Origin: an uncultured Candidatus Saccharibacteria bacterium
GTDB taxonomy: Bacteria; Patescibacteriota; Minisyncoccia; Phycocordibacterales; UBA9973
Direction: 5' to 3'
NCBI GenBank assembly: GCA_964474435.1
Contig: CAYYSI010000002.1
Span: forward strand, 163,604-227,603
Length of the DNA stretch: 64,000 bases
In this document: positions 4,500-59,505 of the stretch, piece after piece
Position numbering within the stretch: position 1 is the first letter of the stretch
Layout: every line of letters starts with the position of its first letter
The notes under the pieces: generated by a model
Database searches by the model: none
What the model saw: only the letters and a program-made list of their open reading frames with translations
What the model was told of the DNA's origin: nothing
Program-made: the position numbers and the translations under genes

Positions 4500-5030
4500 T
4501 TATTTCTGAAACTTTTCTTTATATAACTCTTGAGATTTGATAACTGCCGCAAGTGCTTCAGCCTTATCCCCGATCGAGTCGATCGAGACAGGTTTCTTTT
4601 GGATCTGTTTGTAGGTCAAGAAGAAGTGTTCGATTTCTTTGATCGTGTGCTTGTTCACATCCTTGAGGTCTTGGATGTCATCAAAGCGTGGATCCTTTTC
4701 AGGAACTGCAATGATTTTGGCATCAGAGTCACCATCGTCGATCATGTTGATGACTGCTACAGGACGAACTTTTACAAGCACGCCTGGGACAAGTGGATAC
4801 GTTGTGAGTACTACCACATCCAATGGATCGCCGTCTTCCCAGTGACTCTGTGGCATGAAGCCATAGTCAAATGGATAGTCTTGGGAGGTGTGCATTGCAC
4901 GATCGAGCATGATGAGACCAGTTTCTTTGTCGAGCTCGTATTTGTTTTTTGAACCTTTTGGGATTTCGATGATGACGTTGATGATGTTTGGGACATCAGC
5001 ACCCGCGGTGATTTCGTGGAGGAGATTCAT
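4500..5030 (-). CDS. ppa: Inorganic pyrophosphatase (family I).
   Basis: The start was re-chosen at MNLLHEITAGAD within ORF 4500-5189. Motifs IEIPKGSKNKYELDKE, DPLDVVVL and DDGDSDAKIIAVP are typical of family I PPases. Confidence 0.85.
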   Translation of the reverse strand: MNLLHEITAGADVPNIINVIIEIPKGSKNKYELDKETGLIMLDRAMHTSQDYPFDYGFMPQSHWEDGDPLDVVVLTTYPLVPGVLVKVRPVAVINMIDDGDSDAKIIAVPEKDPRFDDIQDLKDVNKHTIKEIEHFFLTYKQIQKKPVSIDSIGDKAEALAAVIKSQELYKEKFQK

Positions 5031-5031
5031 A

Positions 5032-6378
5032 CTAGTTGTTTTGATTATCCATCTGGGCATCGGCGCCTTCGATTTCATTGGTAATAATTTCACCCGTTGA
5101 GATACCTTCGAGGTCTGACTGGTTGTCAGTTTCGACTGGTACATCAGAAGCAATTTCTTCGAGTGCTTCTTCGTCAGTGATCGGCTCATCAGTTGTTTCT
5201 GCAGTTTCGCCTGCGAAGTTTTTCAATGAGACAAAGTCATCGCCTTCGAGTTTTTCATCAGTTGTTTCTACTTCTGCTTCAGTGCCTTTGATGTCGATCT
5301 TCCAGCCAGTGAGGCGTGCTGCGAGGCGTACATTTTGTCCACCTTTACCGATCGCGAGAGAGAGCTGATCAGGAGTGACTTCGATTGTTGCCTTGTGCTC
5401 TGCGTCATCGAGGTTGAGGTCGAGGACCTTGGCAGGAGAGAGGGATTTCTGGACGAATTCACTTGGGTCTGGTGACCATTCGATGATGTCGATCTTTTCG
5501 CCGCCGAGTTCATTCATAACTGTTGAGACACGCACACCTTTTTGTCCGACACATGATCCGACTGGGTCAATGTTTGCGTCGTCAGTCCAGACAGCGATCT
5601 TTGAACGGCTTCCTGGTTCTCGAGCGATAGCTTTGATTTCGACAATGCCACTTGCAACCTCTGGAGACTCATACCCAAAGAGCTTCTCAAGGAACTTGGG
5701 ATGAGTCCGAGAGATGCGAAGGGTGATACCGCGAGGGGATTCCTCTACGTGATAGAGATATCCACGAATACGTGCACCACGCACGTAGCGCTCACCTGGG
5801 ATTTGTTCGTTGGGAGGGATCACACCAGTTGCACGGTTGAAGTCGACGTACACCATGCCGCGCTCCACCTTTTGGATGTGTCCAGAAATGATATCGCCTT
5901 CCTTGGTACCAAACTCATCGAGGATCGATGTGCGTTCTGCCTCGCGAATGCGTTGCATGATGACCTGCTTTGCAGTTTGTGCAGCAATACGACCAAAGTC
6001 GTCGCGTGGTTCGAGGGAGAATACGATCTCATCACCGATTGCAGCATCAGTTTTCATGATACGTGCGTCATCAAGGAGGATGTGCTTCTCTTCATTATAG
6101 ACTTCTCGTTCATCGTCCTCTGCAACTGCTTCTTCGATACCGTCTTCTGCGACAAATCGAACGAGTGTGTCGTCAACAACAGTCTTTACCTGTTCAAAGT
6201 CGACAGTACCAGCATCGAGACTGATGCGTGCGCGGACTACCTGGCCTTTTTTACCGTATTCTTTCTTGTATGCAGCAGCGAGTGACTGTTCAATCGCATC
6301 AATAAGTTTGTCGCGGCCGATGCGTCGTTCACTTTCGAGTTGTTCAAGTGCGAGTTTGAGTGCTTTTATATCCAACAT
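5032..6378 (-). CDS. nusA: Transcription termination/antitermination factor NusA.
   Basis: 448 aa. N-terminal domain, S1 and two KH motifs (GSRSKIAVW, IGKGGQNVRLAARLTGWKIDI), and an acidic C-terminal tail. Confidence 0.9.
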   Translation of the reverse strand: MLDIKALKLALEQLESERRIGRDKLIDAIEQSLAAAYKKEYGKKGQVVRARISLDAGTVDFEQVKTVVDDTLVRFVAEDGIEEAVAEDDEREVYNEEKHILLDDARIMKTDAAIGDEIVFSLEPRDDFGRIAAQTAKQVIMQRIREAERTSILDEFGTKEGDIISGHIQKVERGMVYVDFNRATGVIPPNEQIPGERYVRGARIRGYLYHVEESPRGITLRISRTHPKFLEKLFGYESPEVASGIVEIKAIAREPGSRSKIAVWTDDANIDPVGSCVGQKGVRVSTVMNELGGEKIDIIEWSPDPSEFVQKSLSPAKVLDLNLDDAEHKATIEVTPDQLSLAIGKGGQNVRLAARLTGWKIDIKGTEAEVETTDEKLEGDDFVSLKNFAGETAETTDEPITDEEALEEIASDVPVETDNQSDLEGISTGEIITNEIEGADAQMDNQNN

Positions 6379-6514
6379 ATATTTTTTTGTTATTTAATTT
6401 TAATAATTTTTTAAAAGCGCGAGTGTTTTGGAGAAAGTTATTAACAGAAATCCCGCTTTTGGCGGGTTCTACACTTGCACATGCATTCTACCATACGTTA
6501 TACTTAGAATCAAC

Positions 6515-7894
6515 ATGACTATATTGCGATCACGAAGCATCAAATCTCTCTTTATCGCTCTTGCAAGTACTGCTCTTGCATTCGCCCTTCTCTCTATCTC
6601 GCCAACTCAGGCACACGCATCGACATCAGACACTATCTATGGCTACGCATGGTCACCAAACATTGGATGGATCAGCATGAACAACTGCACGAGTGCGGGT
6701 GCGTGTACACCTGTCACTTATGGTGTCACGATGCCAACAACCGGTTCAATCCGAAATCTCAGCGGCTACGGATGGTCCTCAAACGTCGGCTGGGTGAGTT
6801 TCAATAGTAAAAATCCAGATGGTACAGCCGGTGCTACAAGCGGTTGTCCAACGTTTCCGGATAATCCAAACTGTCAGGCACAAGTAAACTGGGACTCTGG
6901 AGAGGTTAGTGGATGGGCACGGGCGTGTTCAGTATTTGCAAGTGGTTGTAGTGGTCCCCTCAAGAACGATGGCGTAGGGAATGACATCTATCGTGGCACA
7001 TGGGACGGATTTATCTCGCTTGCGGACACTAACCAGGGCGATCGCGCAGTATTTGGAGTATCTGTAGATGTGGCATCGGGGACACCGGCACGTTTTGCAG
7101 GGTTTGCCTGGGGAGCGGACGTTGTGGGGTGGGTAGACTTCTCTGGGGTGACGTATGATCCACATATATATGAATGTAGTGACACTGTCGACAATCTTGA
7201 CTCAGAGGATCAACTAGCAGATGCAGCTGATCGAGGATGTCACTGGGACTTTGATGTAAATAACCCAGATAGTTATGAACCTATGGATCCTAATGAGTCA
7301 GACTCTATATGTCCAGAGCACACCTATCCTGATGATCCAGTACAACCAAAGAACTGTTATTACTGTCCAAACCTTCCAGGCGGACCATATACCTCACTTC
7401 CAGCAGGGTACCACTACGACACTGATGGTATTTCGTGTATCACTGGGGATCCAACATGTCCACCAGGACAACATGTAGATCCGGTAACTCATCTTTGTGT
7501 AGCTGATCCAGTGTGCCCATCAGGACAGCACGTAGACCCAGTAACCCATCTCTGTGTAGCTGATCCAGTGTGTCCCGCGGGTCAAGTAGTAGACCCTATT
7601 ACCCATCTTTGTGTAAATATCTGTCCTCCCGGCCAAACATGGGACCCTAGAGCAAATGCCTGTATTACTAGTGGCCCAGCCTGTGATCCAAGTACAGCAA
7701 CTTGCCCAGCTGGTGGCCAATGTTCAAACATTCCTGATGATGTTGAGATTGCGCTCGGAGTAGGTGTTCCACCAACTCGACCGTATCGAGCACTTCCTGA
7801 TGGCCGATGTCTCTGTGTGGCAGGATATGTCCTCAATGGCGAATACAAATGTGTGAAGCCGACGTACTGTGAATTAGGAGGTAATTGTAATTAA
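6515..7894 (+). CDS. Secreted cysteine-rich repeat protein.
   Basis: The start was re-chosen at MTILRSRSIKSLFIALASTALAFALLSISPTQAHA, a signal peptide, within ORF 6428-7894. It has two GY(A/G)WS.N(I/V)GW(I/V)S.N repeats. Three tandem 19-aa repeats read DPVCP.GQ.VDP(V/I)THLCV. Many paired Cys. A candidate -35/-10 (TTGCAC / TTATAC) lies at ~6472-6500. Confidence 0.55.
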   Translation: MTILRSRSIKSLFIALASTALAFALLSISPTQAHASTSDTIYGYAWSPNIGWISMNNCTSAGACTPVTYGVTMPTTGSIRNLSGYGWSSNVGWVSFNSKNPDGTAGATSGCPTFPDNPNCQAQVNWDSGEVSGWARACSVFASGCSGPLKNDGVGNDIYRGTWDGFISLADTNQGDRAVFGVSVDVASGTPARFAGFAWGADVVGWVDFSGVTYDPHIYECSDTVDNLDSEDQLADAADRGCHWDFDVNNPDSYEPMDPNESDSICPEHTYPDDPVQPKNCYYCPNLPGGPYTSLPAGYHYDTDGISCITGDPTCPPGQHVDPVTHLCVADPVCPSGQHVDPVTHLCVADPVCPAGQVVDPITHLCVNICPPGQTWDPRANACITSGPACDPSTATCPAGGQCSNIPDDVEIALGVGVPPTRPYRALPDGRCLCVAGYVLNGEYKCVKPTYCELGGNCN

Positions 7895-7900
7895 CATCAT

Positions 7901-8221
7901 ATGGATCAAATGAACAACACAACACAATACGGAGCTCACGACGTGATCATGCCAATGCACCATGACAAGAAACGCACGCTCGTCACAGTCGGGATCATCT
8001 TTGTCGTCATAGCAGCACTTGCGACTGTACTTTATATATACTTCCACAAAAAGGTCTATACGATGGACGAGCTCGAAACAATGCTCGTCAATGTATCGAC
8101 TCCAGTAACTGCAACACCCGAGGAACAAGCCAAGGCAATGAAGGCACTCGAAGCGTCAGCTCCTGCACCGACGGCAACTCTCGAGGAACGCGAAGCAGAG
8201 CTTAACCGATTGAGTCAATAA
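7901..8221 (+). CDS. Small hypothetical membrane protein.
   Basis: 106 aa with a single TM helix (VTVGIIFVVIAALATVLYIYF) and an Ala/Glu-rich C-terminus. Confidence 0.4.
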   Translation: MDQMNNTTQYGAHDVIMPMHHDKKRTLVTVGIIFVVIAALATVLYIYFHKKVYTMDELETMLVNVSTPVTATPEEQAKAMKALEASAPAPTATLEEREAELNRLSQ

Positions 8222-8222
8222 T

Positions 8223-9047
8223 ATGAAACAACAGACCAAACTATTTATCATTACGCTCGCTCTCTGTATTCCTCTCGCCGCAATGACGTACGCGCTCGTG
8301 CCAACAGGAGGATACTTCAATCCAAGTACTGGTCCAACAGGTGACAACAGAGAAGTTGTACCTATCACTATCGGAACCAATCCACAAGCAAAGAATGGTG
8401 GGTTGACGATCCAGTCACCACTCATTGTGCGTGGTGATGCCTTTTTCAAGGCAGAAACATACATCAACGGCTTCATTGCTGGTATCCGACCAGATGCGCA
8501 TGACTCAGTGATCGCATTTGGTGATAGTGGGCACACAGTATCAGTCGAAGCAACAGGGAGTGTCTGGACCAAGAAAGACATGCAGACCAACACGCTCATG
8601 CCAGGAGGCGCAGTCTGTGCCGATGCTGATGGTAAACTTGTGCTCTGTAGTGTTAGTAATACTTGTCCATACGGGTCAACTCCTTCAGGGACAGGTGGCT
8701 GTATTGAGATCCCATGTGTTGTATTTTTGACATTCGAAGGAACCTTTCGTCATGGACGCGTGACCTATGCAGGTTCAACAACAATTCACCCTGCGTTGAC
8801 GATCACTGCAACTCTTGAGGGTTCTGGAAATGCAACGCCGTCGACAGGTAACCCTCGAGATACAACCTTTACAATGCCAGCTGATAGTACGATGAGTTAT
8901 TTCAATGGTGTGGCATGTGGCAATACCATACCGTACAACACTGGTACTGGATGTGGTATCGAAACGACGCCTGGTTTTGATCACGGGTATACCTCACTGG
9001 TATTTCCTGAATACATTCCAGAAGGCAAGATCTGTGTGCAACAATAA
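8223..9047 (+). CDS. Secreted Cys-containing hypothetical protein, paralog 1 of a local three-member family.
   Basis: 274 aa with a signal peptide. Its C-terminal motif GCGIETTPGFDHGYTSLVFPEYIPEGKIC is shared with the 9051-9944 gene (GCEIEGTYGFDHGYTSSVNPPLLPGGRIC). Confidence 0.5.
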   Translation: MKQQTKLFIITLALCIPLAAMTYALVPTGGYFNPSTGPTGDNREVVPITIGTNPQAKNGGLTIQSPLIVRGDAFFKAETYINGFIAGIRPDAHDSVIAFGDSGHTVSVEATGSVWTKKDMQTNTLMPGGAVCADADGKLVLCSVSNTCPYGSTPSGTGGCIEIPCVVFLTFEGTFRHGRVTYAGSTTIHPALTITATLEGSGNATPSTGNPRDTTFTMPADSTMSYFNGVACGNTIPYNTGTGCGIETTPGFDHGYTSLVFPEYIPEGKICVQQ

Positions 9048-9050
9048 TCT

Positions 9051-9944
9051 ATGAACACTATGAAAAAAACAATCCTCAACAACATCAAACTCATCGCCTT
9101 CGGTATCGTCTTTGCGGTTGGTGCAAGTTATGCGTATGCAAGTATTGGTTCACCAAGTATGCCAGCAAGCTTTTCTGCATCAAACAATACCGAGATCCCA
9201 GTCAATATCGGAAATATCCGCCAAGACAAGGGGGGTGCAACTGGAGGAGCGCTCGGGGGCCTCTCGGTGAACAACTTGCTCGCATATCAGACATCGCTTT
9301 TGCAAAAGAAAGCCTATTTCAAGGGTACTGTGCATGGAGGACATCTCGGAGACCTAACATCAATCGTATCCTTTGGAGTCAACTACGTAACTCCTGCTGA
9401 CGACTATCGCGTTGGTATCACGACGACAGGGAGCCTCAATGTAACCAAGGCACTCCAACACCTTCGCTCAAGCAACCTTGTAAACCCGACCATGAAGCAA
9501 GTCTGTGCGACAAGTGATGGTACGCTCACACTGACATGTCCGCCACTTCAGCCGCAATGTCCAGTGAATACTCAGCCAGACGGTGATGGGGGATGTGTCC
9601 CGATCCCGTGTGTTGCCAATGTTAGTTTTAATAAGGGAGGTATTCGATGGGGCTCAGTATCATTTGCAGGGGTAGGAGGAAATACTACCCATCCTGAACT
9701 ATTAATTACTGTTACATTAGTTGGTACGGCCGTACCTTCAGTGACTTCTGGTGGTGAGCGCGATGTCGCATTTATCATTCCTGCAAATGCAACGAATATA
9801 AGCTATAAACCATTGAACCCTTCAGCTAACTGCAATGTCGGTATTGGCTGTGAGATCGAAGGTACATATGGATTTGATCATGGCTATACGAGCTCAGTAA
9901 ATCCGCCACTCCTTCCAGGTGGACGTATCTGTACTGAGGGATAA
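9051..9944 (+). CDS. Secreted Cys-containing hypothetical protein, paralog 2.
   Basis: 297 aa. Signal MKKTILNNIKLIAFGIVFAVGASYAYA is nearly identical to that of the 9953 gene. The C-terminal Cys motif is shared with the 8223 gene. Confidence 0.5.
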   Translation: MNTMKKTILNNIKLIAFGIVFAVGASYAYASIGSPSMPASFSASNNTEIPVNIGNIRQDKGGATGGALGGLSVNNLLAYQTSLLQKKAYFKGTVHGGHLGDLTSIVSFGVNYVTPADDYRVGITTTGSLNVTKALQHLRSSNLVNPTMKQVCATSDGTLTLTCPPLQPQCPVNTQPDGDGGCVPIPCVANVSFNKGGIRWGSVSFAGVGGNTTHPELLITVTLVGTAVPSVTSGGERDVAFIIPANATNISYKPLNPSANCNVGIGCEIEGTYGFDHGYTSSVNPPLLPGGRICTEG

Positions 9945-9952
9945 TATATATA

Positions 9953-10387
9953 ATGAAAACCACTATGAAAAAAACAATCCTCACCAACATCAAACTCATC
10001 GCCTTTGGCATCGTCTTTGCGATTGGGGCAAGTTATGCGTATGGAGCATTCTCTCTCCCAACTGGGGGTGCACCAGGTGCCAACATTGCCATTCCACTTC
10101 ATACCGGTATGAGTCAAAATAGAGCCGGAGCACTCTCTACGGGTACCTTTGTTTCTGAGTCCACCGCAGCCTTTGACCAGAACATCTTTGTCGAAGAGCA
10201 AACTATCTATGGAGGCACACTTGGGGATACCGTATCGACGATCCAGTTTGGTGATACTGACACCGTGTATGTCCAAAGTAATGGAAGTATCAAGGTCAAG
10301 GACTTCATTCGTGCCCAAGACCTTGCCACAGGAGCCATACATCCAGTCTGTGCCGACAATCAAGGCAACATCGTCTTTTGTCCATAA
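9953..10387 (+). CDS. Secreted hypothetical protein, paralog 3 (N-terminal domain only).
   Basis: 144 aa. Signal MKKTILTNIKLIAFGIVFAIGASYAYG. The YGGTLGD region resembles paralogs 1 and 2. It ends ...VCADNQGNIVFCP. Confidence 0.45.
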   Translation: MKTTMKKTILTNIKLIAFGIVFAIGASYAYGAFSLPTGGAPGANIAIPLHTGMSQNRAGALSTGTFVSESTAAFDQNIFVEEQTIYGGTLGDTVSTIQFGDTDTVYVQSNGSIKVKDFIRAQDLATGAIHPVCADNQGNIVFCP

Positions 10388-10451
10388 TAATAGTCTCTCG
10401 TGAAAACACTGCCTGATCCGCAGTGTTTTTTTCATTTCAGAGTGAGTTTTT

Positions 10452-11228
10452 GTGCGTGCTATACTAGATCCAATGAAACTATTGATCGGCAACTGGAAAA
10501 TGGCGCCTGACACCGCAGTACAGGCAGCATCTCTTGCAAAGGCAACTGCAACTATCGCTCGAACATACAAGAAATCTCTCTCTGTCATTGTTGCCGTGCC
10601 ATCTATTCATTTGGCAGCAGTAACAAAGGCTGCAAAAAATCTGCCCCTAGCTGGACAAACGATTGCACCGACAATGGCAGTTGCTTCTACAGGACTCGTC
10701 AGTGCGAGCATGCTCAAGGGTGCAAAGGCAGGGTACTGTATCGTGGGTCACTCAGAGAGTCGCGCACGAGGGGAGACCAATGAGATCGTGCGCGAACAGA
10801 TCGACTGTTTGTTTGAGAAAAAGATCATACCCATCCTCTGTGTTGGAGAAAAGGAGCGTGATGCCCAAGGATGGTATCTCAGCGTGATCAAAGACCAACT
10901 CGAGAGTGCCTTTGCCGACGTACCCAAGGCAACACTCAAGCGTGTCGTTGTCGCCTACGAGCCAGTCTGGGCGATCGGTGCACAGGCAACACGTGAGGCA
11001 ACACCTGCAGAGTGTCAGGAAATGATTATTTTTATACGCAAGATCATCGCAGATCTGTATGACGAAAAAGTCGCCGCAAGTATCAAGGTGCTCTACGGAG
11101 GATCGGTGAGCGAAACAAATGCATACTCATTTGTGACTGACGGTGGAGCAGACGGGCTGCTTGTGGGACGCGTCAGTCTCGAGCCGAAGCGCTTTGCAAA
11201 GCTCGCGCAGAGTATTTCAACAAAATAA
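10452..11228 (+). CDS. tpiA: Triosephosphate isomerase.
   Basis: Motifs IGNWKM, HSESR and AYEPVWAIGAQATREATP are classic TIM signatures. An alternative start at MKLL (10473) is possible. Confidence 0.85.
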   Translation: MRAILDPMKLLIGNWKMAPDTAVQAASLAKATATIARTYKKSLSVIVAVPSIHLAAVTKAAKNLPLAGQTIAPTMAVASTGLVSASMLKGAKAGYCIVGHSESRARGETNEIVREQIDCLFEKKIIPILCVGEKERDAQGWYLSVIKDQLESAFADVPKATLKRVVVAYEPVWAIGAQATREATPAECQEMIIFIRKIIADLYDEKVAASIKVLYGGSVSETNAYSFVTDGGADGLLVGRVSLEPKRFAKLAQSISTK

Positions 11229-14444: not shown

Positions 14445-16127
14445 ATGCACCCTCTCGTGTTACAATCATCCTCTATGAACCCCACTCTGCCGACACCTGC
14501 TGAGCTTGAAATCCTCCTCGCAAAGCGTTTGAGGCTCTCGCCTGACGAGCATCAAGCGTTTATTGCGCCCACGTACAAACTCGGAGACCTCTTTGCATTT
14601 ACTGACATGCAGATCGCAGTTGCGCGATTCTACAAGGCTGTGACAGGTGGGGAACACATCGGGATTTATTCAGACTATGACTGTGATGGCATTCCGGGCG
14701 CAGTGGTGTTCATCGATCTGTTCAAGAAACTTGGCATCATGGATCGCGTGCATGTGTACATTCCCGATCGGCATGACGAAGGCTACGGGGTAAGCAAAAT
14801 TGGGATCGATGAACTCGAAAAGCAGGGCGTGACACTTATGCTCACAGTCGATGTTGGGATCACCGCGATTGCAGAAATAGCTGACGCACAGTCACGCGGT
14901 ATCGATGTCATCCTCACCGATCATCACGCACCACTTCCAGAATTCCCAGCTGCATTTGCAGTTGTGCATCCCGCAAAAGGGAACTATGTAAACCAAGATC
15001 CGTGTGGTGCTGCAATGGCCTTTTATGTGGTGTGTGCATTCCTCGAAAAATATCGCGCAGAGTTCGACATACCAGAGGGCTGGGAGAAATGGCTACTCGA
15101 TCTCGTCGGGTTTGCGACTCTTGCCGACATGGTGCCACTGGTCGGAGAGAATCGCATGCTTGTTGCGTATGGACTCCATGTCGTGCGCAAGACTCGCCGC
15201 ATTGGGCTCAAGATGTTGCTTGAGAAAAATGGCATCGCGCTCCCAAATCTGATCGAAACAGACCTCACATTCACTGTCGCACCCCGACTGAACGCCGCGT
15301 CACGCATGGACACACCCATGCTTGCATTTGAGCTCCTCTCAACTGACGACCCAGAGCGTGCTAAAGAGATCGTATCTATCCTCGACTCCATCAACAACGA
15401 TCGCAAGGTACTCGTTGCTCGCATTGTCAAAGCCGCGCACGCAAGCCTCGAACAACGATCAGTTGCAAATGATCTCTCACCGATCGTAGTTATCGGCAAC
15501 CCGGAATGGCGACCCGCAGTCCTCGGTCTTGTGGCAAACAAACTCCAGGAAAAATACAACCGAAGCTTCTTTGTCTGGGGCGAGGCAGGGGACGGCACGA
15601 TCAAGGGTTCATGTCGCATGATCGATGAACACCATGCAGCGCTCCTATTCCAAGCATTGCCCGAAGGCATGGTGCTCCATGCAGGCGGACACCAAGCAGC
15701 GGGTGGATTCTCTGTCTCCAAAGACAACATTCACTTCCTCGAAGAAGCATTGAATGCTGCGATCGCAAGTGTCGACCATACTGGTGCTGACAAAGATACG
15801 CTGGATGTGATCGCGCTCCCGCTCGTGAGCTCGACGACGCGCCATCTCTCTGTGGTGCGCAAGTTTGCACCCTTTGGTGTAGGCAACACCGAGCCACACT
15901 TTATGTTTGAAGGGCTCCTCATCATGTCAGTAAAAATGTTTGGGAAACAAAAGGAGCACATCGAAGTCATGATTCGTGACTCGACTGCAAGTGCGACTGC
16001 ATTTACATTCTTTGCAGACGAGAAACTCATCTCGCAACTCACCGAAGGCAATACTGTGACAATCATTGGCACCATTGAAGCGGGCTGGAGGGGAGGAGTA
16101 CGGATCAGGATACAGGAGGTGAAATAA
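14445..16127 (+). CDS. recJ: Single-stranded-DNA-specific exonuclease RecJ (DHH/DHHA1).
   Basis: 560 aa. Motifs DYDCDGIPGAVV, TDHHAP and the DHHA1 region GGHQAAGG. Confidence 0.85.
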   Translation: MHPLVLQSSSMNPTLPTPAELEILLAKRLRLSPDEHQAFIAPTYKLGDLFAFTDMQIAVARFYKAVTGGEHIGIYSDYDCDGIPGAVVFIDLFKKLGIMDRVHVYIPDRHDEGYGVSKIGIDELEKQGVTLMLTVDVGITAIAEIADAQSRGIDVILTDHHAPLPEFPAAFAVVHPAKGNYVNQDPCGAAMAFYVVCAFLEKYRAEFDIPEGWEKWLLDLVGFATLADMVPLVGENRMLVAYGLHVVRKTRRIGLKMLLEKNGIALPNLIETDLTFTVAPRLNAASRMDTPMLAFELLSTDDPERAKEIVSILDSINNDRKVLVARIVKAAHASLEQRSVANDLSPIVVIGNPEWRPAVLGLVANKLQEKYNRSFFVWGEAGDGTIKGSCRMIDEHHAALLFQALPEGMVLHAGGHQAAGGFSVSKDNIHFLEEALNAAIASVDHTGADKDTLDVIALPLVSSTTRHLSVVRKFAPFGVGNTEPHFMFEGLLIMSVKMFGKQKEHIEVMIRDSTASATAFTFFADEKLISQLTEGNTVTIIGTIEAGWRGGVRIRIQEVK

Positions 16128-16158
16128 AAATACTGCCAGGATTTGGCAGTATTTAATG
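16128..16158. terminator. Bidirectional intrinsic terminator between recJ (+) and the 16163-16405 (-) ORF.
   Basis: aaaaa-tactgcca-ggatt-tggcagta-ttta. Perfect 8-bp stem with A/T tracts on both sides. Confidence 0.5.
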
Positions 16159-16162
16159 AAAG

Positions 16163-16405
16163 CTACTTTTTTAACAGAAATTTTCTCAAACCGTTTTTTA
16201 GGTTATCAATTCTTTCAGGAAGGATAGTTACTGTAAATTCAGTACGTCCCCGGCTCGTTTTGATAGAAGAATGTTCAATTGTCCCATTTGTGTTTAAGAA
16301 AATGAAAGTTTTAAACTCCTCACTTTCAAAAATTTTCTTTGGGAAGTTTTGTACAAAGTAATCTTCAGCAGTTTTTGTCACTTGAATATCTAATATGCGT
16401 GCCAT
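16163..16405 (-). CDS. Hypothetical small protein.
   Basis: 80-aa ORF lying in an AT-rich stretch. No motif recognised. Confidence 0.3.
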   Translation of the reverse strand: MARILDIQVTKTAEDYFVQNFPKKIFESEEFKTFIFLNTNGTIEHSSIKTSRGRTEFTVTILPERIDNLKNGLRKFLLKK

Positions 16406-16545
16406 ATGTAATGTGCGTTTAGTTATTACACACGGTATATGGATTGCTTCGTACTGTCAAATGATTAACTAATGCCATTGACATCTCAGTACTTTATAGT
16501 AGTATTTGTGGAAACAATTTTTAACCTGTTCTAAAACAAACAAAT

Positions 16546-17811
16546 ATGAAAAGAAGAGAAATACCGAAACTTTGCTTCAAAGAGCTCTTGGTATTAGCCA
16601 GAGAACTCATTTTTGTAGAAAAAACACATCTTCCTCAACGTATTACGATGAGAGAATTTTCTCGGAGCATTCAGGTTGAATTCATTAAGAGATTCCGTTG
16701 CTATAAGCAAAATCTTCGTGATGAACTTCATGGCGAATTATCAATTATGATTGCTGATATGAATGGGATCATTCTAGACAAAATAGAGATGCCCAAACGA
16801 GAGATAATCAAGATACCTCTTTCGGATGATATATATAAAAACCTTCCGGATATTGAATTTCTTGAGTTACTAAAATCAGCACTCCATGCTGATGATGGGG
16901 TGTATAGTTCATTTGGTTTTACACCAAAACTTTCGCTTCATCGGGAAACTACCGATAGGTTACAAATGGGTCTCAACTGCTTCGGTATCGCAAGTCTTAT
17001 TGGATCATATTGCACATGGAAAGGAATTTCTGTTGAACTTGGTATTACACCAGATCATCCGTACGCGGTCGTTTCCTTGAAAGAAGGAGTATATCTTGTT
17101 GACCATTTCAATCTCATAAAGTTAGACGGTGAAATCAAACGATATAAGGATTACGGGGTGTATTATCCTACAGAGAAAGAAGAAGGGAAAATCCTCGCTA
17201 TGATCATGGTAGTTCCGTTTGATGATGGCTTGGTCTATGAAATACTTGAGAATACAGAAATGCTTAGATGTGTACTCAATGGTACTCAAAAGGATATGTT
17301 ACCTGGTACAGAATGTAAAGGTAAAATTATTGCAAAGGAAAATGAAACGATTCTCAATCGTTGCAACTGGAAACAATTACAGATGTTGCTATTTCCTGAA
17401 ATTACGGCTGCATTTGCTAAGCATCAGCTTGGATGGCAGCTCAATGTATCTATGATCTATCAACAGCGATATGAATGGTATGCTCAGAAAATTTTTGAAT
17501 ATGCTGCATTTCATGCACAAAAAGCAACACTATTTTCTAGTGAAAAGTTCGATGAAGCACATGAAGTATTGGTCGACGTATTTAAGGATCATTACGAAGA
17601 AATCATGTTGTATTTAGAACATGGAATGGAATTTAGTGAATTTGTACCATTAGATGTTTGTAACTATTTTTGCACTCTAAAAGTTGCAATAAATAAAAAA
17701 GAACAAGAGGATGGTACACTTGTTGCTGAGCATATTTATAAAATGATCAACACTAAGCTTGTTGACATGAATATCCAAAAGAAGTATAAGGAAACAAATC
17801 TCGTCACCTAA
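16546..17811 (+). CDS. Hypothetical protein with a transglutaminase-like (papain-fold Cys-His-Asp) core.
   Basis: 421 aa in an AT-rich region. GLNCFGIASLIGSYCTWKGISVELGITPDHPYAVVSLKEGVYLVDHFN matches the order G-x-C ... GI ... H ... D of transglutaminase-like cysteine peptidases. Confidence 0.45.
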   Translation: MKRREIPKLCFKELLVLARELIFVEKTHLPQRITMREFSRSIQVEFIKRFRCYKQNLRDELHGELSIMIADMNGIILDKIEMPKREIIKIPLSDDIYKNLPDIEFLELLKSALHADDGVYSSFGFTPKLSLHRETTDRLQMGLNCFGIASLIGSYCTWKGISVELGITPDHPYAVVSLKEGVYLVDHFNLIKLDGEIKRYKDYGVYYPTEKEEGKILAMIMVVPFDDGLVYEILENTEMLRCVLNGTQKDMLPGTECKGKIIAKENETILNRCNWKQLQMLLFPEITAAFAKHQLGWQLNVSMIYQQRYEWYAQKIFEYAAFHAQKATLFSSEKFDEAHEVLVDVFKDHYEEIMLYLEHGMEFSEFVPLDVCNYFCTLKVAINKKEQEDGTLVAEHIYKMINTKLVDMNIQKKYKETNLVT

Positions 17812-17822
17812 ATCATCAGGTT

Positions 17823-18029
17823 ATGTTTTTTATTAGTAAAAAGAAGTTTAAAGAAACAGTTAAAAACGCAGTAGATGAGCATCTGAAGAGTACGGGAAAG
17901 GAGGTGATAGTACAAAAGACAGTAGTACAACATCACCACCATTCAAATTCAGGTAGTAGTTCATCTGTTCGTCAGGATGGATCAAATATAAATGGTCCAT
18001 CAGAAGCTCTAAAGAAATCGTGGCTATAA
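17823..18029 (+). CDS. Small hypothetical protein with a His4 and Ser-rich stretch.
   Basis: 68-aa ORF containing HHHHSNSGSSSS. It could be non-coding. Confidence 0.2.
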   Translation: MFFISKKKFKETVKNAVDEHLKSTGKEVIVQKTVVQHHHHSNSGSSSSVRQDGSNINGPSEALKKSWL

Positions 18030-20026: not shown

Positions 20027-21481
20027 ATGATTGAACTTGTTGCGCTCATGCTGACTATTGGTGCGCTGTTGTATCACAGCTTTCACACAGGGATCGAGAT
20101 GGTGAGCTATATTGGAGTACTTGTTGCGATATGTATCGGTATCTTTTTCCGATCAGGTCGAGGGTTGGCGTTCGGAGTAATACTTAGTGGGACACTGATA
20201 CTCGGAGCACTTGCAGTCTGGCGGATCGATGTACGGACTCCGCCTGACATATTTGGGAACCGTGCATTTGATGCGACAGTGGTGTCAGTTGATCGCAGGC
20301 TTGATAAAACAAACCTGGTTGTGCGCGACTCTGTGTATGATGAGCGGCTGCAGGCAAGTGTGGTGGGGGATATTGAATTGCTGCCCGGAGACCGGATCAC
20401 CGTACGAGGCAGTGTCGAAGCGCCAGAGGACTTTGTGACAAACTCAGGGCGCATCTTTGGATACCAAGCATACCTGTCGAGCAAGGGGATTGTGGGACTT
20501 GTGAAGAATCCGACGGTTGTACTTGTGAAAGAAGGGCACATATCGCTGTCGCGTGTTGCGACGATCATCAGGTACAAAGTTGCTGATATTTTTGCGGAGC
20601 ATATCTCATTTCCGGTGGACGGCGTGATCGGTGGCATGGTTGTTGGGTACCAAGGTGGACTCCCGCAATCAATCCAAGATCTCTTTCGTGACACCGGCGT
20701 GCTCCATGTCCTCGTGCTCTCCGGCTACAACATCACGCTCCTGGCGGGATTCCTCGCGCTCATATTGAAGTCTCTGCCGTTTCGTCTCCGCACTGCCATC
20801 ACTGCAATCGCCATCATCATGATCGTGCTCGTCAGTGGGGCCGGCGTTGCATCGGTGCGAGCAGGAATCATGGGATCGATAGCCCTTGTTGCAGGGCTGT
20901 CGATCAGGACGTATCAGCCCATGCGGGCATTGTTTGTGTCGTACATAGTATTCTTTTTCATTTCGCCGCACACGATATTTGCTGATCCTGGATTTCATCT
21001 GTCATTTCTCGCAACGCTGTTTATGATTGCCGTGCTGCCCAAAGTTGAACAACTGTTTCACTTCATTCCACAAACCAAACACGTCGATCTGCGCGAGCTC
21101 ATCATGCTTGCAGTATCGGCCCCGATATTTATGTTGCCGTACACGATGTATTTCTCGGGCAACTTTCCACTCGCGTCCCCGTTTGCCAACATGCTGCTCG
21201 CCATCGTCACACCGATCATTATGATTGCGGGGATTATTGTCATTGCACTATCATGGATCACACCACTTGCCGCATTGTTCGGAATGATTATTTCAGTTGC
21301 AGGAAAGGCGGTGCTCTGGTGTCTCGTGCAGTTTGCCAAGCTCCCCATATGGAACACACCACCAATTGCGTGGTGGTGTGTAGTTGGTATCTATGGAGTG
21401 ATTCTTGTCGCGTTATTTAAAAACAATATCGTTACTTATTTTTCGCATCGTCATAGAGTGCTTCGACGGCGGACCAGTTGA
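20027..21481 (+). CDS. comEC: ComEC/Rec2 DNA-uptake channel (DUF4131 plus Competence domain). It lacks the C-terminal metallo-beta-lactamase domain.
   Basis: 484 aa and polytopic. GVLHVLVLSGYNITLLAGF matches the ComEC competence-domain signature (..LLVISGLHI..). An N-terminal OB-like region is present. Confidence 0.7.
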   Translation: MIELVALMLTIGALLYHSFHTGIEMVSYIGVLVAICIGIFFRSGRGLAFGVILSGTLILGALAVWRIDVRTPPDIFGNRAFDATVVSVDRRLDKTNLVVRDSVYDERLQASVVGDIELLPGDRITVRGSVEAPEDFVTNSGRIFGYQAYLSSKGIVGLVKNPTVVLVKEGHISLSRVATIIRYKVADIFAEHISFPVDGVIGGMVVGYQGGLPQSIQDLFRDTGVLHVLVLSGYNITLLAGFLALILKSLPFRLRTAITAIAIIMIVLVSGAGVASVRAGIMGSIALVAGLSIRTYQPMRALFVSYIVFFFISPHTIFADPGFHLSFLATLFMIAVLPKVEQLFHFIPQTKHVDLRELIMLAVSAPIFMLPYTMYFSGNFPLASPFANMLLAIVTPIIMIAGIIVIALSWITPLAALFGMIISVAGKAVLWCLVQFAKLPIWNTPPIAWWCVVGIYGVILVALFKNNIVTYFSHRHRVLRRRTS

Positions 21482-51114: not shown

Positions 51115-53316
51115 ATGAATCGTCGCATCCACATTTTTTTTATTCCTGCAGTCGTGTGTATTGGTGCACTCGGTATCACGTATTTATTGTGGATGTTTAC
51201 CAAAGCCAGTCTCGCATCTCAAGCAACGGCACAATTTCAATCGCGCAGTACTGAAATCAAATCATTGATTTCAAAAAAGATGGAGGTGTATACCGGACTC
51301 CTTTCTGGGGCACAAGGACTCTTTGCTGCGTCAGACACCGTTGAGGCTGATGAGTGGAGTTCGTATGTCGCCAAACTTGATTTAGCACATCAGTACAAAG
51401 GAGCCGCAGGAATGTCGTTCATCAAGCGCGTACCTAAAGCTGAGGTTGCCTCATTTCCATATACTATTTATCCTTCCACCAAAAAAGAGGTGTATTATCC
51501 ATTTGCGTATGTGAGTTCTATAACTGACACCGCCAAGAAAACACTTGGCTTTGATGCAAGCTCAGAATCAAAACGCTTTGATGCACTCATGACTGCCGCA
51601 AAGACTGATACACCAACGGCATCTGCAGTCGTGCTCAGTGTCAGTGCACAGCTCCCATCTTTTTCTATCTATGCACCGATTTATACAAATGGCGCACGTC
51701 ACACGACGCAATCTGAACGCATGAATGCACTCAAGGGATTTGTGATTATCGGATTTCGCGTCGAGGAGTTGTTTGCTGATATTGCCGCAGACCCAACCTT
51801 TGACAAAAACATCGATCTCGAGATTTATGATGCAACGTCCGAGGGGCAGGCAACTGCCGAGACACTGATTTATGATACGGACAAACAGGCACACGCACTG
51901 GAACGCACTGCATCTCGCGTGACGACTGTGCAGACGATCAAGGTTGCAGGTCGCACGTGGACACTCTACTTTTCTGCGGATGAAGGCTATCAGTTCAATA
52001 ATATTGAATCATACGCACCACTCGTTGTGCTCTTTGGGGGGATACTGGTCAGTATTATTTTGACATGGCTCATGTATATCTATGCTGCATCGCGCAACCG
52101 CGCTATTGCACTGGCGAACAAAATCACCAAAGATCTTGCAGCGCAAACGGTGGAGCTCAAACGAGAGACCAAGGCGCTCGCTGAAATAAAGGCGAAAGAT
52201 GAGGCAATCCTCAGTTCAATCGGGGATGGTGTTGCGGTTGCAGATACGACGGGCAAACTCATTTATTGGAATACGGCAGCAGAAGAAATTGTGGGAATAA
52301 AATTTGGCGAAACACAGTCAGACGATTGGGAAAAAACGTACGGCGTATTTTATCCTGATGAAAAAACGCCGATGCCCGGAGAGGAGCAAGCGCTCGCACT
52401 TGCCGTCAAAGGCCAAACGATTGATGCAATGCCGGAGTTCATCAGAAATGCTGGCGTACCAGAAGGCCGCCACATCGCAGTCAGTGCCAAGCCAGTGAAG
52501 CTTGCCGACGGCACCGTGCTTGGTGCAGTTGCGATATTTCGCGATGTAACCAAGGAATTCGAAGTCGACAAGGCAAAGACTGAGTTTGTCTCGCTCGCAT
52601 CTCATCAACTGCGCACACCACTGACTGCGATCAACTGGTATTCCGAAATGTTGGGAACGACGGGCAAGCTTACCAAAGATCAACAATCATTTGCAGCAGA
52701 AATCAACACTGCATCGACGCGTATGTCGGACCTCGTGAACTCACTCCTCAACGTCTCTCGGCTTGAGCTCGGCACATTTGCAATCGAACCAGAGCCTGCA
52801 GATATTGTCGCAATTGCAGAAGCGGCGATCCATGAACAAGAGATAACATTCAAGACAAAGAAGCAGACATTTACCTTTACGCATGATGATGCACTTCCAA
52901 CACTTGCGCTCGACAAACGACTTATTCACATCACAATCCAAAACCTGCTTTCAAATGCATCAAAGTATACGCCTGATGGCGGTGAAGTAACGCTTGCAAT
53001 TACCAAGAAAGGTAAGGGTATTCGTATCACATGTATAGACAACGGCTACGGCATTCCAAAGGCACAGCAAAAAGACATGTTCAAGAAACTCTTCCGTGCA
53101 GACAATGTCAAAAAACTTGCGATCGAAGGCACTGGGCTTGGTCTCTACATTATCAAAAGCATCATTGAAGCAGCTGGATCCACCATTTCTTTCAAATCAA
53201 CCGAAGGAAAAGGAACGACATTTACCATTGATATTCCCGCGGGTGGTATGAAATCAAAAATAGGTGATCGTACACTCTCGCAGAGTGTGGGGGATTCTGC
53301 TATACTCAAGAAATAA
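51115..53316 (+). CDS. Sensor histidine kinase with an extracytoplasmic CHASE-like domain, PAS, HisKA and HATPase_c.
   Basis: 733 aa with two TM helices flanking a ~270-aa periplasmic domain. H-box SHQLRTPLTAI. N/G boxes NLLSNASKYTPDGG ... DNGYGIP ... GTGLGLYIIK. Confidence 0.8.
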   Translation: MNRRIHIFFIPAVVCIGALGITYLLWMFTKASLASQATAQFQSRSTEIKSLISKKMEVYTGLLSGAQGLFAASDTVEADEWSSYVAKLDLAHQYKGAAGMSFIKRVPKAEVASFPYTIYPSTKKEVYYPFAYVSSITDTAKKTLGFDASSESKRFDALMTAAKTDTPTASAVVLSVSAQLPSFSIYAPIYTNGARHTTQSERMNALKGFVIIGFRVEELFADIAADPTFDKNIDLEIYDATSEGQATAETLIYDTDKQAHALERTASRVTTVQTIKVAGRTWTLYFSADEGYQFNNIESYAPLVVLFGGILVSIILTWLMYIYAASRNRAIALANKITKDLAAQTVELKRETKALAEIKAKDEAILSSIGDGVAVADTTGKLIYWNTAAEEIVGIKFGETQSDDWEKTYGVFYPDEKTPMPGEEQALALAVKGQTIDAMPEFIRNAGVPEGRHIAVSAKPVKLADGTVLGAVAIFRDVTKEFEVDKAKTEFVSLASHQLRTPLTAINWYSEMLGTTGKLTKDQQSFAAEINTASTRMSDLVNSLLNVSRLELGTFAIEPEPADIVAIAEAAIHEQEITFKTKKQTFTFTHDDALPTLALDKRLIHITIQNLLSNASKYTPDGGEVTLAITKKGKGIRITCIDNGYGIPKAQQKDMFKKLFRADNVKKLAIEGTGLGLYIIKSIIEAAGSTISFKSTEGKGTTFTIDIPAGGMKSKIGDRTLSQSVGDSAILKK

Positions 53317-53687
53317 TGAACACTGGAAAACACATTCTTATTGCCGAAGATGAGAAGCCGCTTTCTCGAGCACTTGAACTAAAACTCGCAAGCGAGGGAT
53401 TTGTCATTGATACTGCATTTGATGGTGAGACGGTCAAAGAAAAGATTGCTGCAAACACGTACGACATTATTCTCATGGACCTCATGATGCCCAACCATGA
53501 TGGCTTTGCAGTGATCGAGGATCTCAAGTCTCGCGGCATCACGACTCCAGTTGTCATCATGTCCAACCTCAGCCAAGACTCTGATCGCAACCGTGCCGCG
53601 ATCGCTGGTGCAAGTCACTACTTCGTCAAGGCAGATGTGAAGCTCGCCGATATTGTTAGCTATATCAAAGAAACACTTAGTCATTAA
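53316..53687 (+). CDS. Single-domain response regulator (CheY-like receiver).
   Basis: 123 aa. ILIAEDE...DIILMDLMMP(N)HDG ... VVIMSN are the canonical receiver motifs. Translationally coupled to the kinase (overlapping stop/start). Confidence 0.8.
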   Translation: MNTGKHILIAEDEKPLSRALELKLASEGFVIDTAFDGETVKEKIAANTYDIILMDLMMPNHDGFAVIEDLKSRGITTPVVIMSNLSQDSDRNRAAIAGASHYFVKADVKLADIVSYIKETLSH

Positions 53688-53694
53688 AATCACC

Positions 53695-55362
53695 ATGTTT
53701 GACCAGGCTCTTTATCAAAACATTCTCCTCGATCAAAACTACATTAGTCCCGCTGATGCGGCAGCTGCCAGTGCATACGAGGCAGCAGGACGGGGGACAT
53801 TTATCGAATACCTTCTCCAAAACGATATTCTCAATGAGTCGACCCTTGGCCTTGCGATTGCCGAGCACTACAACACGACGTTTGCAGACCTTGGTACTCG
53901 ACCACCATCTGATGTCGACATGGCTCGCATTCCCGAAGATATTTCCAAGAAATACCGCATCGTATTTATCGATGGTACCGAGACCGCAGTCCGAGTTGCA
54001 AGTGATACGCCTGATAATGCAGAGCTTCCAGGCGTCCTTGCGACTCTCTTTCCGAACATACCGGTGACGATATCGTTTGCATTTACGACTGCGATCGACA
54101 CCGTGCTCAGCCATTACCAAAAGGCGCTCAATACCCGATTTTCTGATATTATCAAAGGCGACAAACGCGTTGCCCCAGAAATCTTTGATGAGATCATCAA
54201 AGACGCGATTTCATTTCGTGCATCCGACATTCACTTTGAGCCCGCACTGACCAAGGCGATCGTCAGATTCCGTGTTGACGGCATGCTGAGGTTGGCAGGC
54301 GAGATCCCACGTGAGTATTACGAAAATGTATTGAACCGCATCAAGATCCAATCAAATCTCCGTACTGACGAGCACTTTGCACCACAGGATGGCGCGATCC
54401 GATTTGTTTCGGCAGCTACCACAGTCGATCTCCGTGTGTCCATTGTTCCGACCCTTGATGGCGAAAAGGTCGTGATCCGCGTGCTTGCAGAATACGTCAA
54501 AGGGCTCACCTTTGCAGATCTCGGATTTTCTGATCGCAACATCGCACTCCTTGAAGCGGCAGCGCGCAAGCCGTTTGGGATGATCATCGTCTCTGGACCG
54601 ACTGGATCTGGAAAGACGACGACATTGTATTCACTCATCAAGAAACTCAATACGCCCGAAGTCAACATCACAAGTATTGAAGACCCGGTTGAGTACCGTA
54701 TGATTGGTGCAAACCAGATCCAGGTTAACCCCAAGACCGATCTCACCTTTGCCAAAGGGTTGCGCGCCATCGTTCGTCAGGACCCCAACATTATTTTGGT
54801 CGGAGAAATCCGTGATACGGAGACTGCAGAGACCGCAGTGAATGCCGCATTGACTGGCCACCTGCTCCTTTCTACATTCCATGCAAATGATGCAGCAACA
54901 ACGATCCCGAGACTTTTGGAAATGTCGATCGAGCCATTCCTTCTTGCATCGACCGTAGAGCTCATCATCGCACAGCGACTCGTGCGCACTATCTGTGAAT
55001 CCTGTAAGCAAAGTTACAAGACAACACCTGCCAAACTCACAGAGCTCTTTCCGCAAGCAAAAAATTATTTCTCAGGCGCATCACTCACGCTCTACAAAGG
55101 CAACGGCTGTACTGCATGCAACAACACAGGATACCTCGGACGCACGTCTATCATCGAGATCATTTCAGTCGACAAGTCACTTCGCGAGCTCATTGTGACT
55201 CGGCCATCGGCAGGCGAGATTTGGGATGCGGCCAAGCGTGCAGGAGCACAGTCACTCTTTGATGATGGTATCAGCAAGGTCAAAGTTGGTGTCACCACGG
55301 TCGAAGAAATCCTGCGTGTCGCTTCTCCTGATCAGACTATTCAAATCCCCAAGAAGGTATGA
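53695..55362 (+). CDS. pilB: Type IV pilus / type II secretion assembly ATPase (PilB/GspE family).
   Basis: The start was re-chosen at MFDQALYQ within ORF 53653-55362. N-terminal GSPII_E_N domain. Walker A GPTGSGKTTTL. GEIRD...A..AA.TGH and the tetracysteine motif CESCK...C.AC. Confidence 0.85.
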   Translation: MFDQALYQNILLDQNYISPADAAAASAYEAAGRGTFIEYLLQNDILNESTLGLAIAEHYNTTFADLGTRPPSDVDMARIPEDISKKYRIVFIDGTETAVRVASDTPDNAELPGVLATLFPNIPVTISFAFTTAIDTVLSHYQKALNTRFSDIIKGDKRVAPEIFDEIIKDAISFRASDIHFEPALTKAIVRFRVDGMLRLAGEIPREYYENVLNRIKIQSNLRTDEHFAPQDGAIRFVSAATTVDLRVSIVPTLDGEKVVIRVLAEYVKGLTFADLGFSDRNIALLEAAARKPFGMIIVSGPTGSGKTTTLYSLIKKLNTPEVNITSIEDPVEYRMIGANQIQVNPKTDLTFAKGLRAIVRQDPNIILVGEIRDTETAETAVNAALTGHLLLSTFHANDAATTIPRLLEMSIEPFLLASTVELIIAQRLVRTICESCKQSYKTTPAKLTELFPQAKNYFSGASLTLYKGNGCTACNNTGYLGRTSIIEIISVDKSLRELIVTRPSAGEIWDAAKRAGAQSLFDDGISKVKVGVTTVEEILRVASPDQTIQIPKKV

Positions 55363-57711: not shown

Positions 57712-57713
57712 GT

Positions 57714-59376: not shown

Positions 59377-59505
59377 TGAATTGAATTGTTTACGAATAAT
59401 TACAAAATGAACTGTCTCTAGAAAACGACTCCTTCCTCAACCTCGCTCTTTTGTACTTTTATAGTATCACCCTTTGATTAAAAAGTCAAGGTGATATTTT
59501 AATTG

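Follow-up and report, generated by a model that had tools for sequence, protein, structure and literature searches.

We analysed 64,000 nucleotides of DNA from an uncultured, ultrasmall Candidatus Saccharibacteria bacterium (contig CAYYSI010000002.1, positions 163,604 to 227,603 of the forward strand), hereafter the window, in which five consecutive open reading frames (ORFs), A to E, encode four proteins with predicted signal peptides and one small membrane protein. An initial annotation of this DNA had described the secreted, Cys-rich proteins as a local expansion of paralogues. It had omitted ORF B, the size of the two protein families involved, and their recurrent link to type IV pilus (T4P) genes. 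The ORFs and signals that delimit the locus are as follows.

6476-6504, forward strand: weak promoter-like site (TGCACA-17-TATACT) upstream of A, found by consensus scan
6515-7894, forward strand: ORF A, 459 amino acids (aa)
7901-8221, forward strand: ORF B, 106 aa, with one transmembrane segment (aa ~24-47) and no Cys
8223-9047, forward strand: ORF C, 274 aa, the "position 1" paralogue
9051-9944, forward strand: ORF D, 297 aa, the "position 2" paralogue
9953-10387, forward strand: ORF E, 144 aa, the "position 3" paralogue
10402-10430, forward strand: terminator-like hairpin between E and tpiA, an 11-bp stem followed by a T run

All five ORFs are co-directional, with intergenic gaps of 6, 1, 3 and 8 bp (A-B, B-C, C-D and D-E), and because of these tight gaps, the common direction and the closing hairpin, we read A-B-C-D-E as a single operon. 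Promoter-like sites in the region are no more numerous than expected from shuffled sequence. Downstream of the operon lie tpiA (10452-11228) and then pgk, while nusA and an inorganic pyrophosphatase gene lie upstream on the opposite strand. The arrangement of A to E is not due to chance, since the same five genes recur in the same order in another species, with protein identities of 52-65%. Judged from its single transmembrane segment, B is a predicted small bitopic membrane protein, and orthologues of B are present at two of the related loci that we compared throughout, L001 and L003 (the latter from Candidatus Pacebacteria, the closest named relative).

C, D and E align as paralogues with 30-37% identity, as had been proposed, and all three are built around a common module. 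Their parts, all on the forward strand, are as follows.

C: predicted signal peptide, aa 1-24; module, 8295-8651, ending in C132-X9-C142; 130-aa C-terminal domain with six Cys (GFDHGYTS), 8652-9044
D: predicted signal peptide, aa ~1-30; module, 9141-9542, ending in C152-X10-C163; C-terminal Cys domain, 9546-9938
E: predicted signal peptide, aa ~1-31; module alone, 10046-10384, ending in C133-X9-C143

The initial annotation had pointed to near-identical signal peptides in two of these proteins and to a C-terminal motif shared by two, and both observations hold: the N-termini of D and E have 24 of 27 residues in common, and the C-terminal domains of C and D (GC.IE.T.GFDHGYTS...IC) are 47% identical to each other. 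E stops directly after its Cys-X9-Cys hairpin. A word-index search was insufficient to place these proteins, since D retrieved two proteins (one of them an orthologue) and the module profile 14. An exhaustive profile search of 1.84 billion clusters revealed the family, with 837 cluster representatives at E<=1e-3 and 216 at E<=1e-10. Nearly all matches are confined to profile positions 1 to ~145, and the module itself, which comes after a signal-peptide-like N-terminus, spans ~115 aa. The shared unit thus begins with this N-terminus (consensus MKKTLLTNLKYIAFGLVLA.G.SYA.A), continues with a Pro-rich P..PP.N..P segment and a Q.K.GGLSV..F.A..NA.F...G.IRGG...STV.FG core, and ends in a (V/L)CAD..G.L.LC hairpin whose two Cys are invariant in 150 sequences. 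C, D and E each match the module profile (A3) across positions 1-141.

Stand-alone module proteins of 137-160 aa are common, and the E orthologue in L003 is likewise short, at 145 aa. Because such stand-alone members are common, E is best read as the minimal form of the family and not, as had been claimed, as a truncated or decayed copy. In other members the module is followed by long extensions of varied kind, and some of these contain Hint/PT-HINT (self-cleaving) or Cys-rich DUF4215 domains. Through such members (P0144 and others), the module serves as an N-terminal carrier for very different ends. As for the GFDHGYTS motif, a search found it in orthologues of C and D in two related lineages but otherwise in three other representatives only, which makes this domain rare. 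Tandem fusions of two modules in a single chain also occur (P0127, P0130; L005, 10076-11677). In these proteins the second module begins at profile position 28-29 and has no hydrophobic segment, which argues that the hydrophobic N-terminus is a leader and not part of the fold.

Protein A belongs to a second family, whose features in the window are listed here.

aa 1-35: predicted signal peptide, ending in AHA before ST
aa 36-~215: conserved N-domain with three G[YF][AG]W.....GW[IV].[FM] motifs (6641-6685, 6764-6808 and 7100-7147, forward strand)
7160-7714 (as compared), forward strand: variable Cys-rich spacer between the N-domain and the C-terminal piece
7460-7615, forward strand: 57-nt (19-aa) tandem repeat DPVCPxGQxVDPxTHLCVA, 2.7 copies with 79% matches (Tandem Repeats Finder, TRF)
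7715-7891, forward strand: conserved C-terminal piece of ~55 aa

Two GY.WS.N.GW repeats had been noted in A, and we found them at aa 43-57 (GYAWSPNIGWISMNN) and aa 84-98 (GYGWSSNVGWVSFNS). To these we add a third, weaker copy at aa 196-211 (GFAWGADVVGWVDFSG); relatives keep all three motifs. The 19-aa repeat that had been described is also borne out as the tandem repeat listed above. A has 28 Cys, every one in the mature part. Relatives of A comprise 247 word-index matches, assigned by their source names to Paceibacterota/Parcubacteria lineages. Most of these cover only the first ~200 residues, that is, the N-domain, and end instead in PKD, CARDB, Big-like, DUF4215 and similar domains. Window A carries the signature of the family N-domain, namely three G[YF]AW..N.GW[IV].F motifs, GWARACSVF, GGWDG[FW]I.L and conserved Cys pairs. 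In the A4 alignment the signature columns are invariant or nearly so, and the hidden Markov model (HMM) derived from it detects window A.

Full-length relatives of A are tripartite, with a conserved N-domain, a Cys-rich middle carrying a species-specific type of repeat, and a conserved C-terminal piece of ~55 aa. The middle consists of DPVCPxGQ..THLCV repeats in the window versus C-W-C-type repeats in L001 and L003, and its identity to the orthologues at these two loci is 36-45%, compared to 56-77% in the flanking conserved domains. By this comparison, the Cys-rich middle of A is a hypervariable spacer or display region.

To follow the locus in relatives, the A-family alignment was scanned against one genome per species, which returned 80 loci, nearly all labelled as Patescibacteria lineages. 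An HMM scan of their ORFs found a gene with the A N-domain in 74. At least one module gene lies within 5 kb of A in 57 of the 74 loci, and in 54 of those 57 all nearby module genes are on the strand of A. Exactly three module genes are present in 18 loci, and many loci have one, two or four. Of 40 loci, at least 22 have a B-like ORF of ~100 aa with a single transmembrane segment that separates A from the first module gene. The commonest neighbour of the cassette is NusA (24 loci), which indicates strong vertical synteny, and the only recurrent neighbours outside housekeeping functions are PilB and PilC. Together, these counts show that an A-(B)-module cassette recurs across Paceibacterota.

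The idea of a local paralogue expansion did not survive a comparison of module positions. In 17 species loci an A gene is followed by three module genes in tandem. For the modules of these loci, the nearest module in a different species was at the same position in 48 of 51 cases (17/17, 16/17 and 15/17 for positions 1, 2 and 3), and position 1 modules form a single clade. Because nearest neighbours share position in this way, the triplication is old and the copies are non-redundant. At L005 two of the modules are fused in one 533-aa protein, so that three modules are kept, and this suggests that the modules probably work together.

The diversifying selection that the initial annotation had suggested is not supported at the gene-wide level either. 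Gene-wide dN/dS (the ratio of nonsynonymous to synonymous substitution rates, NG86 method) against the L001 orthologues is 0.13-0.20, with 0.07 for NusA, where dS values of 1.6-2.5 are saturated and leave only the direction of the ratio informative; between the paralogues, at 30% identity, dN/dS is meaningless. Cassette proteins are 52-65% identical to those of L001, versus 84% for NusA. By these measures, the cassette evolves fast yet under purifying selection. On the other hand, the 5' ends of D and E (9060-9138 and 9965-10043) are identical at 74 of 79 nt, synonymous sites included, while the proteins are ~36% identical elsewhere, which suggests gene conversion of the leader-coding ends. 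The D and E orthologues in L001 share a near-identical stretch of ~30 nt at the same place that differs in sequence from that of the window, and the two leaders thus seem to evolve in concert within each genome. Since the 47% identity of the C-terminal domains of C and D exceeds that of their modules, this domain was copied between the two genes more recently. The D/E 5' identity and the C/D C-terminal similarity together point to some recent exchange between copies on top of an ancient triplication.

The window also contains a T4P or pseudopilus block, identified by tblastn and Pfam.

53695-58615, forward strand: T4P/pseudopilus block of this genome
53695-55362, forward strand: PilB
55359-56468, forward strand: PilC
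56468-56899, 56896-57711, 57714-58229 and 58226-58615, forward strand: class III pilin-like genes

Here the block lies 43 kb from the A-E cassette, with 46 kb between A and the pilin genes. PilB, PilC and minor pilins come directly after the cassette in many relatives, and the whole string lies between nusA and tpiA-pgk. L003 reads nusA, then A-B-C'-D'-E'-PilB-PilC-three class III pilins-597aa. L091 reads A-B-3 modules-PilB-PilC-3 pilins-595aa-TIM-PGK, compared to A-B-C-D-E-TIM-PGK in the window, and this comparison indicates that the pilus block is missing between E and tpiA in the lineage of the window. L003, L088 and L091 share a synteny in which the pilus block comes directly after the third module gene. 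Of the 74 loci, 12 have a T4P gene no more than 300 bp from the cassette (binomial P<3e-4 even at a 5% chance rate), a P value that overstates significance because the loci are phylogenetically related. Where the two adjoin, the gap from the cassette to the nearest T4P gene is 5-126 bp, with PilB at 21-78 bp on the same strand, and the A proteins of these lineages are only 31-46% identical to window A.

Contexts picked via module proteins gave a similar picture, with PilB right after the third module gene in four of five. In L056 and L064 an A-family gene is followed immediately by minor-pilin genes, and in L070 minor-pilin genes precede the A-family gene. At two further loci (L086 and L090) PilB alone follows the cassette and is itself followed by replication-origin genes (rnpA/rpmH or yidD, dnaA, dnaN), so the pair of cassette and PilB persists even when PilC and the pilins are elsewhere. 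Altogether, the link to pilus genes is real but partial.

Several observations concern the pilus block itself. Immediately upstream of pilB, at 51115-53687, are genes for a histidine kinase of the CHASE-PAS type (733 aa) and for a response regulator with a single domain (123 aa), the latter overlapping the longest pilB ORF; judged from their position, they may be a dedicated regulator of the translocated block. A ComEC-type competence channel is encoded at 20027-21481 (forward strand; Pfam Competence, E=1e-38), ~10 kb downstream of the cassette. Between the two lies a 560-aa ORF (14445-16127, forward strand) that we read as RecJ via a gene of the same length in L002, a second assembly of the region; the label rests on Pfam DHH, DHHA1 and RecJ_OB in the L002 gene. 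L089 has the same order with ComEC and additionally a TfoX_N gene upstream. No PilM, PilN or PilO genes were seen in the pilus blocks examined, and the PilB-PilC-4-pilin block of the window is also without PilT. This gene content hints that the window block could be a Com-like DNA-uptake pseudopilus. A role for the cassette as a DNA receptor beside such a block is unlikely because the mature proteins are acidic (isoelectric point 4.1-6.5).

The predicted signal peptides of A, C, D and E each comprise a basic n-region, 14-17 consecutive hydrophobic residues and a terminus of the A-x-A type. Every mature part has an even number of Cys (A 28, C 8, D 8 and E 2; none in B). In line with the initial annotation, A, C, D and E thus look secreted and Cys-rich. 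No housekeeping family matched either, as searches with A-E and with the family profiles against Pfam, NCBIfam, PHROGs and PDB sequences returned nothing above threshold. Likewise, 27 members of the module family gave nothing above threshold in Pfam (E<=10) or PHROGs (E<=1).

Candidate identities were examined one at a time. The proteins had been described as other than class III pilins, and this agrees with our results: A-E have no match to N_methyl (PF07963) at E<=1, and a motif regular expression finds no class III signal in C, D or E, while two of the four pilin-like genes of the window match N_methyl at 29 bits. When the module profile (A3) was compared by HHalign with four alignments of pilins from related loci, the probabilities were 0.9-2.1%. 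A is not a member of the PilY1/Neisseria PilC family by sequence, with no match to PF05567 and only a sub-threshold CBM_14 hit in Pfam at E<=1; a PDB profile search of A gave nothing relevant. Sortase substrates were rejected since the C-termini (...CELGGNCN, ...GKICVQQ, ...GRICTEG and ...IVFCP) have no LPXTG-type motif or hydrophobic tail. For lipoproteins, the sole leader Cys is in C (LALC, with Leu at -1) and is absent from the L001 and L003 orthologues. B to E have no Pfam match to PilN, PilO or PilP at E<=1. Phage fibres were dismissed because PHROGs gave no match below E=0.03 in the 27 module proteins; in addition, no A-family relatives were found in 2.9 million viral contigs, and the cassette is flanked by housekeeping genes.

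Structure prediction, which had been put forward for the C-terminal domain, did not resolve it. AlphaFold2 gave no usable fold for E (27 sequences; predicted local distance difference test, pLDDT, 62; predicted template modelling score, pTM, 0.27) or for C (150 sequences; pLDDT 63, pTM 0.31), and the Cys domain of C stayed below 50. The module in the C model reached pLDDT 70-87 but has almost no secondary structure. Foldseek returned no significant structural match.

We favour the reading, at a probability of about 0.5, that the products of the operon form a Patescibacteria-specific surface complex, heteromeric, disulfide-bonded and exported by Sec, which cooperates with a T4P or pseudopilus as a non-pilin accessory or adhesive part. 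On this view Sec would export A, C, D and E, signal peptidase I would remove their leaders, and their Cys would then form disulfides beyond the membrane. A single copy each of C, D and E would assemble with A in a hetero-complex of fixed stoichiometry, perhaps tethered by the bitopic B, with the conserved modules serving assembly or docking and the variable ends (the Cys-rich repeats of A and the GFDHGYTS domain of C and D) contacting host or substrate. The adhesin or host-interaction role proposed initially fits the architecture of both families, a conserved module with variable Ig-like or Cys-rich ends. Several points weigh against a pilus role. No pilus gene lies within 5 kb in 59 of the 74 loci, which were selected by A; cassette and pilus block are unlinked in this genome; the kinship of the loci weakens the adjacency statistic; signal-peptide cleavage was assigned by eye; and neither by sequence nor by profile do the proteins resemble any known pilus component.

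The 59 loci with no nearby pilus gene would suit a self-standing adhesin or envelope complex that is anchored via B or the cell wall and physically separate from the pilus, in which case adjacency to pilB would reflect inherited synteny or the co-regulation of two attachment systems. The cassette is intact here with its own terminator, 43 kb from pilB; housekeeping NusA is an even more frequent neighbour, as vertical synteny would have it; and the combination of a conserved module with variable ends is a general architecture of monoderm surface proteins. However, such a complex does not readily account for the short gaps to T4P genes in lineages with divergent A proteins, for the retention of PilB beside the cassette without PilC and pilins in L086 and L090, or for A-family genes that adjoin minor-pilin sets with no module genes in between. 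We consider it a possible but somewhat unlikely alternative.

A different assembly would make C, D and E a new Sec-dependent fibre, for instance a heterotrimeric shaft to which each paralogue contributes one chain, or a polymer formed by strand exchange. A would be the distal head and B the base, and the pilus ATPase might help to display or extend the fibre. Three modules are kept even through gene fusion, the tightest gene linkage is with PilB, and a module with pLDDT 70-87 and almost no intramolecular secondary structure may be how single chains of trimeric fibres often look. The top Foldseek rows were trimeric fibre proteins (reovirus sigma1 and endosialidase stalks), although at E>=2, which is not evidence alone. 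There was no significant structural match, many loci have one, two or four module genes, and no repeat periodicity was demonstrated. That C, D and E are three chains of a Sec-exported heteromeric fibre or tip structure, with A as head and B as membrane base, built or deployed with the Paceibacterota pilus ATPase, is doubtful in our estimate, and the fibre proper a shade more so.

Less probable again is that the pilus machine itself includes B, C, D and E as structural, membrane-anchored parts, standing in for PilN/PilO/PilP-type components in a monoderm envelope of the Candidate Phyla Radiation (CPR), with uncleaved anchors. Genes of the pilMNOPQ set are often found near pilus genes, and five genes just upstream of pilB-pilC, one of them bitopic, resemble that position in blocks where PilM, PilN and PilO were not seen. 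Yet the conserved A-x-A end and the fused second module that has no hydrophobic segment argue for cleavage, the highly variable, adhesin-like C-terminal extensions (Hint, DUF4215) are unlike machine components, and the search for PilN, PilO and PilP domains was negative. The scenario of the initial annotation, in which secreted adhesin paralogues recently expanded on the spot under diversifying selection and E is a decayed, truncated copy, would fit secreted-looking, Cys-rich proteins, a cassette that evolves faster than NusA, C-terminal domains in C and D that are more alike than their modules, and gene conversion at the 5' ends of D and E. It is largely refuted by position-specific orthology in 17 species, and conserved and common E-type short forms and the low dN/dS speak against it as well, which leaves it very improbable.

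Precedents for the favoured pilus-associated complex exist, since PilY1 together with minor pilins, or PilX-type adhesins, have such an accessory or adhesive role elsewhere. As with PilY1/PilC1-2 and the core minor pilins, A is a large non-pilin protein, predicted to be exported by Sec, of a family encoded beside pilus genes in some relatives. A-family genes directly adjoin class III minor-pilin sets in L056, L064 and L070 (though window A does not), and the build is similarly modular, with one conserved and one variable adhesive part. Unlike PilY1, A lacks the PilY1 Pfam match and has its conserved part at the N-terminus, whereas that of PilY1 is a C-terminal beta-propeller. The three non-pilin module proteins and the small membrane protein of the cassette also have no counterpart in the type IVa pilus system of PilY1. 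Minor-pilin heterotrimers such as GspI-GspJ-GspK resemble C, D and E in having three anciently diverged small subunits in fixed order beside the genes for an assembly ATPase and a platform protein, and this fixed order suggests one copy of each in a complex. In contrast to them, C, D and E have no class III signal, N-terminal methylation motif or profile similarity, and genuine minor pilins are encoded separately in the same gene strings. TcpF and CofJ carry a Sec signal peptide, fold outside the membrane and are exported via the pilus tip through an extended N-terminal segment. A conserved, Pro-rich extended segment likewise stands at the start of mature C, D and E, a pure analogy: there is no homology, and TcpF and CofJ are each a lone effector of a Gram-negative enteric pathogen and no part of a conserved triplet.

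Closer to the present organism, PilX1 and PilX2 of Saccharibacteria T4P loci are putative tip adhesins with non-canonical signals (PMC11623550). Like the cassette proteins, those of Nanosynbacter lyticus TM7x are patescibacterial, encoded at a pilus locus and without a PilD-type signal peptide, and they have been proposed as tip adhesins with lectin-like ends (PMC11623550). They differ in being described as pilin-like with accessory domains, while C, D and E have no pilin similarity and a hydrophobic N-terminus that appears dispensable; the distinction is made by description. Arrays of signal-peptide genes beside pilBCDMT have been reported in Paceibacterales UBA5633 (PMC9763046) and, in work cited there, in Saccharibacteria. 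These too are runs of small signal-peptide genes near T4P genes, thought relevant to host attachment, and we liken them to the cassette by description; however, they were defined by signal-peptide prediction and blastp only, and neither families nor module boundaries, a fixed triplet or A/B partners were described for them. Families of unknown function that are enriched in CPR have also been catalogued (PMC6744442). The papers that we read give general accounts of CPR pili and of signal-peptide arrays, and none of them names either family, the fixed triplet or the A-B-module cassette. Our analysis defines two large families without a Pfam or NCBIfam model, and a fixed cassette composed of A, B and three non-redundant modules.

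The remainder of the window holds a few further features. The pyrophosphatase encoded upstream of the operon (4500-5189, reverse strand) shares only ~41% identity with the proteins encoded at the same position in L001 and L003, versus 84-87% for NusA. Since its longest ORF runs 158 nt into the 3' end of nusA, its true start is probably internal. An ORF of 421 aa with no Pfam match (16546-17811, forward strand) lies in a segment of low GC content (16001-18000; 35.5% versus ~46% elsewhere) that may be foreign DNA. A transfer-messenger RNA (tmRNA) gene, with the tag AKNSAKVASPYFSMAGAIPIFA, is located at 59505-59892 on the reverse strand, and the adjoining ORF (60058-60498, reverse strand) looks SmpB-like by its sequence. 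No tRNA genes were found across the whole 64 kb.

CPR bacteria, or Patescibacteria, make up a large share of bacterial diversity and live attached to other cells, and in the few members brought into culture T4P are, to our knowledge, the sole attachment system of established importance. If the fibre or tip reading is true, the cassette would represent a new kind of CPR-specific, non-pilin appendage component that is central to host attachment. If it is instead an independent surface complex, it would still be a conserved, lineage-defining feature of the envelope. If, as we favour, the cassette forms an accessory or tip complex of the pilus, it would provide concrete candidates for host recognition in a class without genetically tractable cultivated members, and it would account for a stretch of "hypothetical proteins" that recurs in these genomes.

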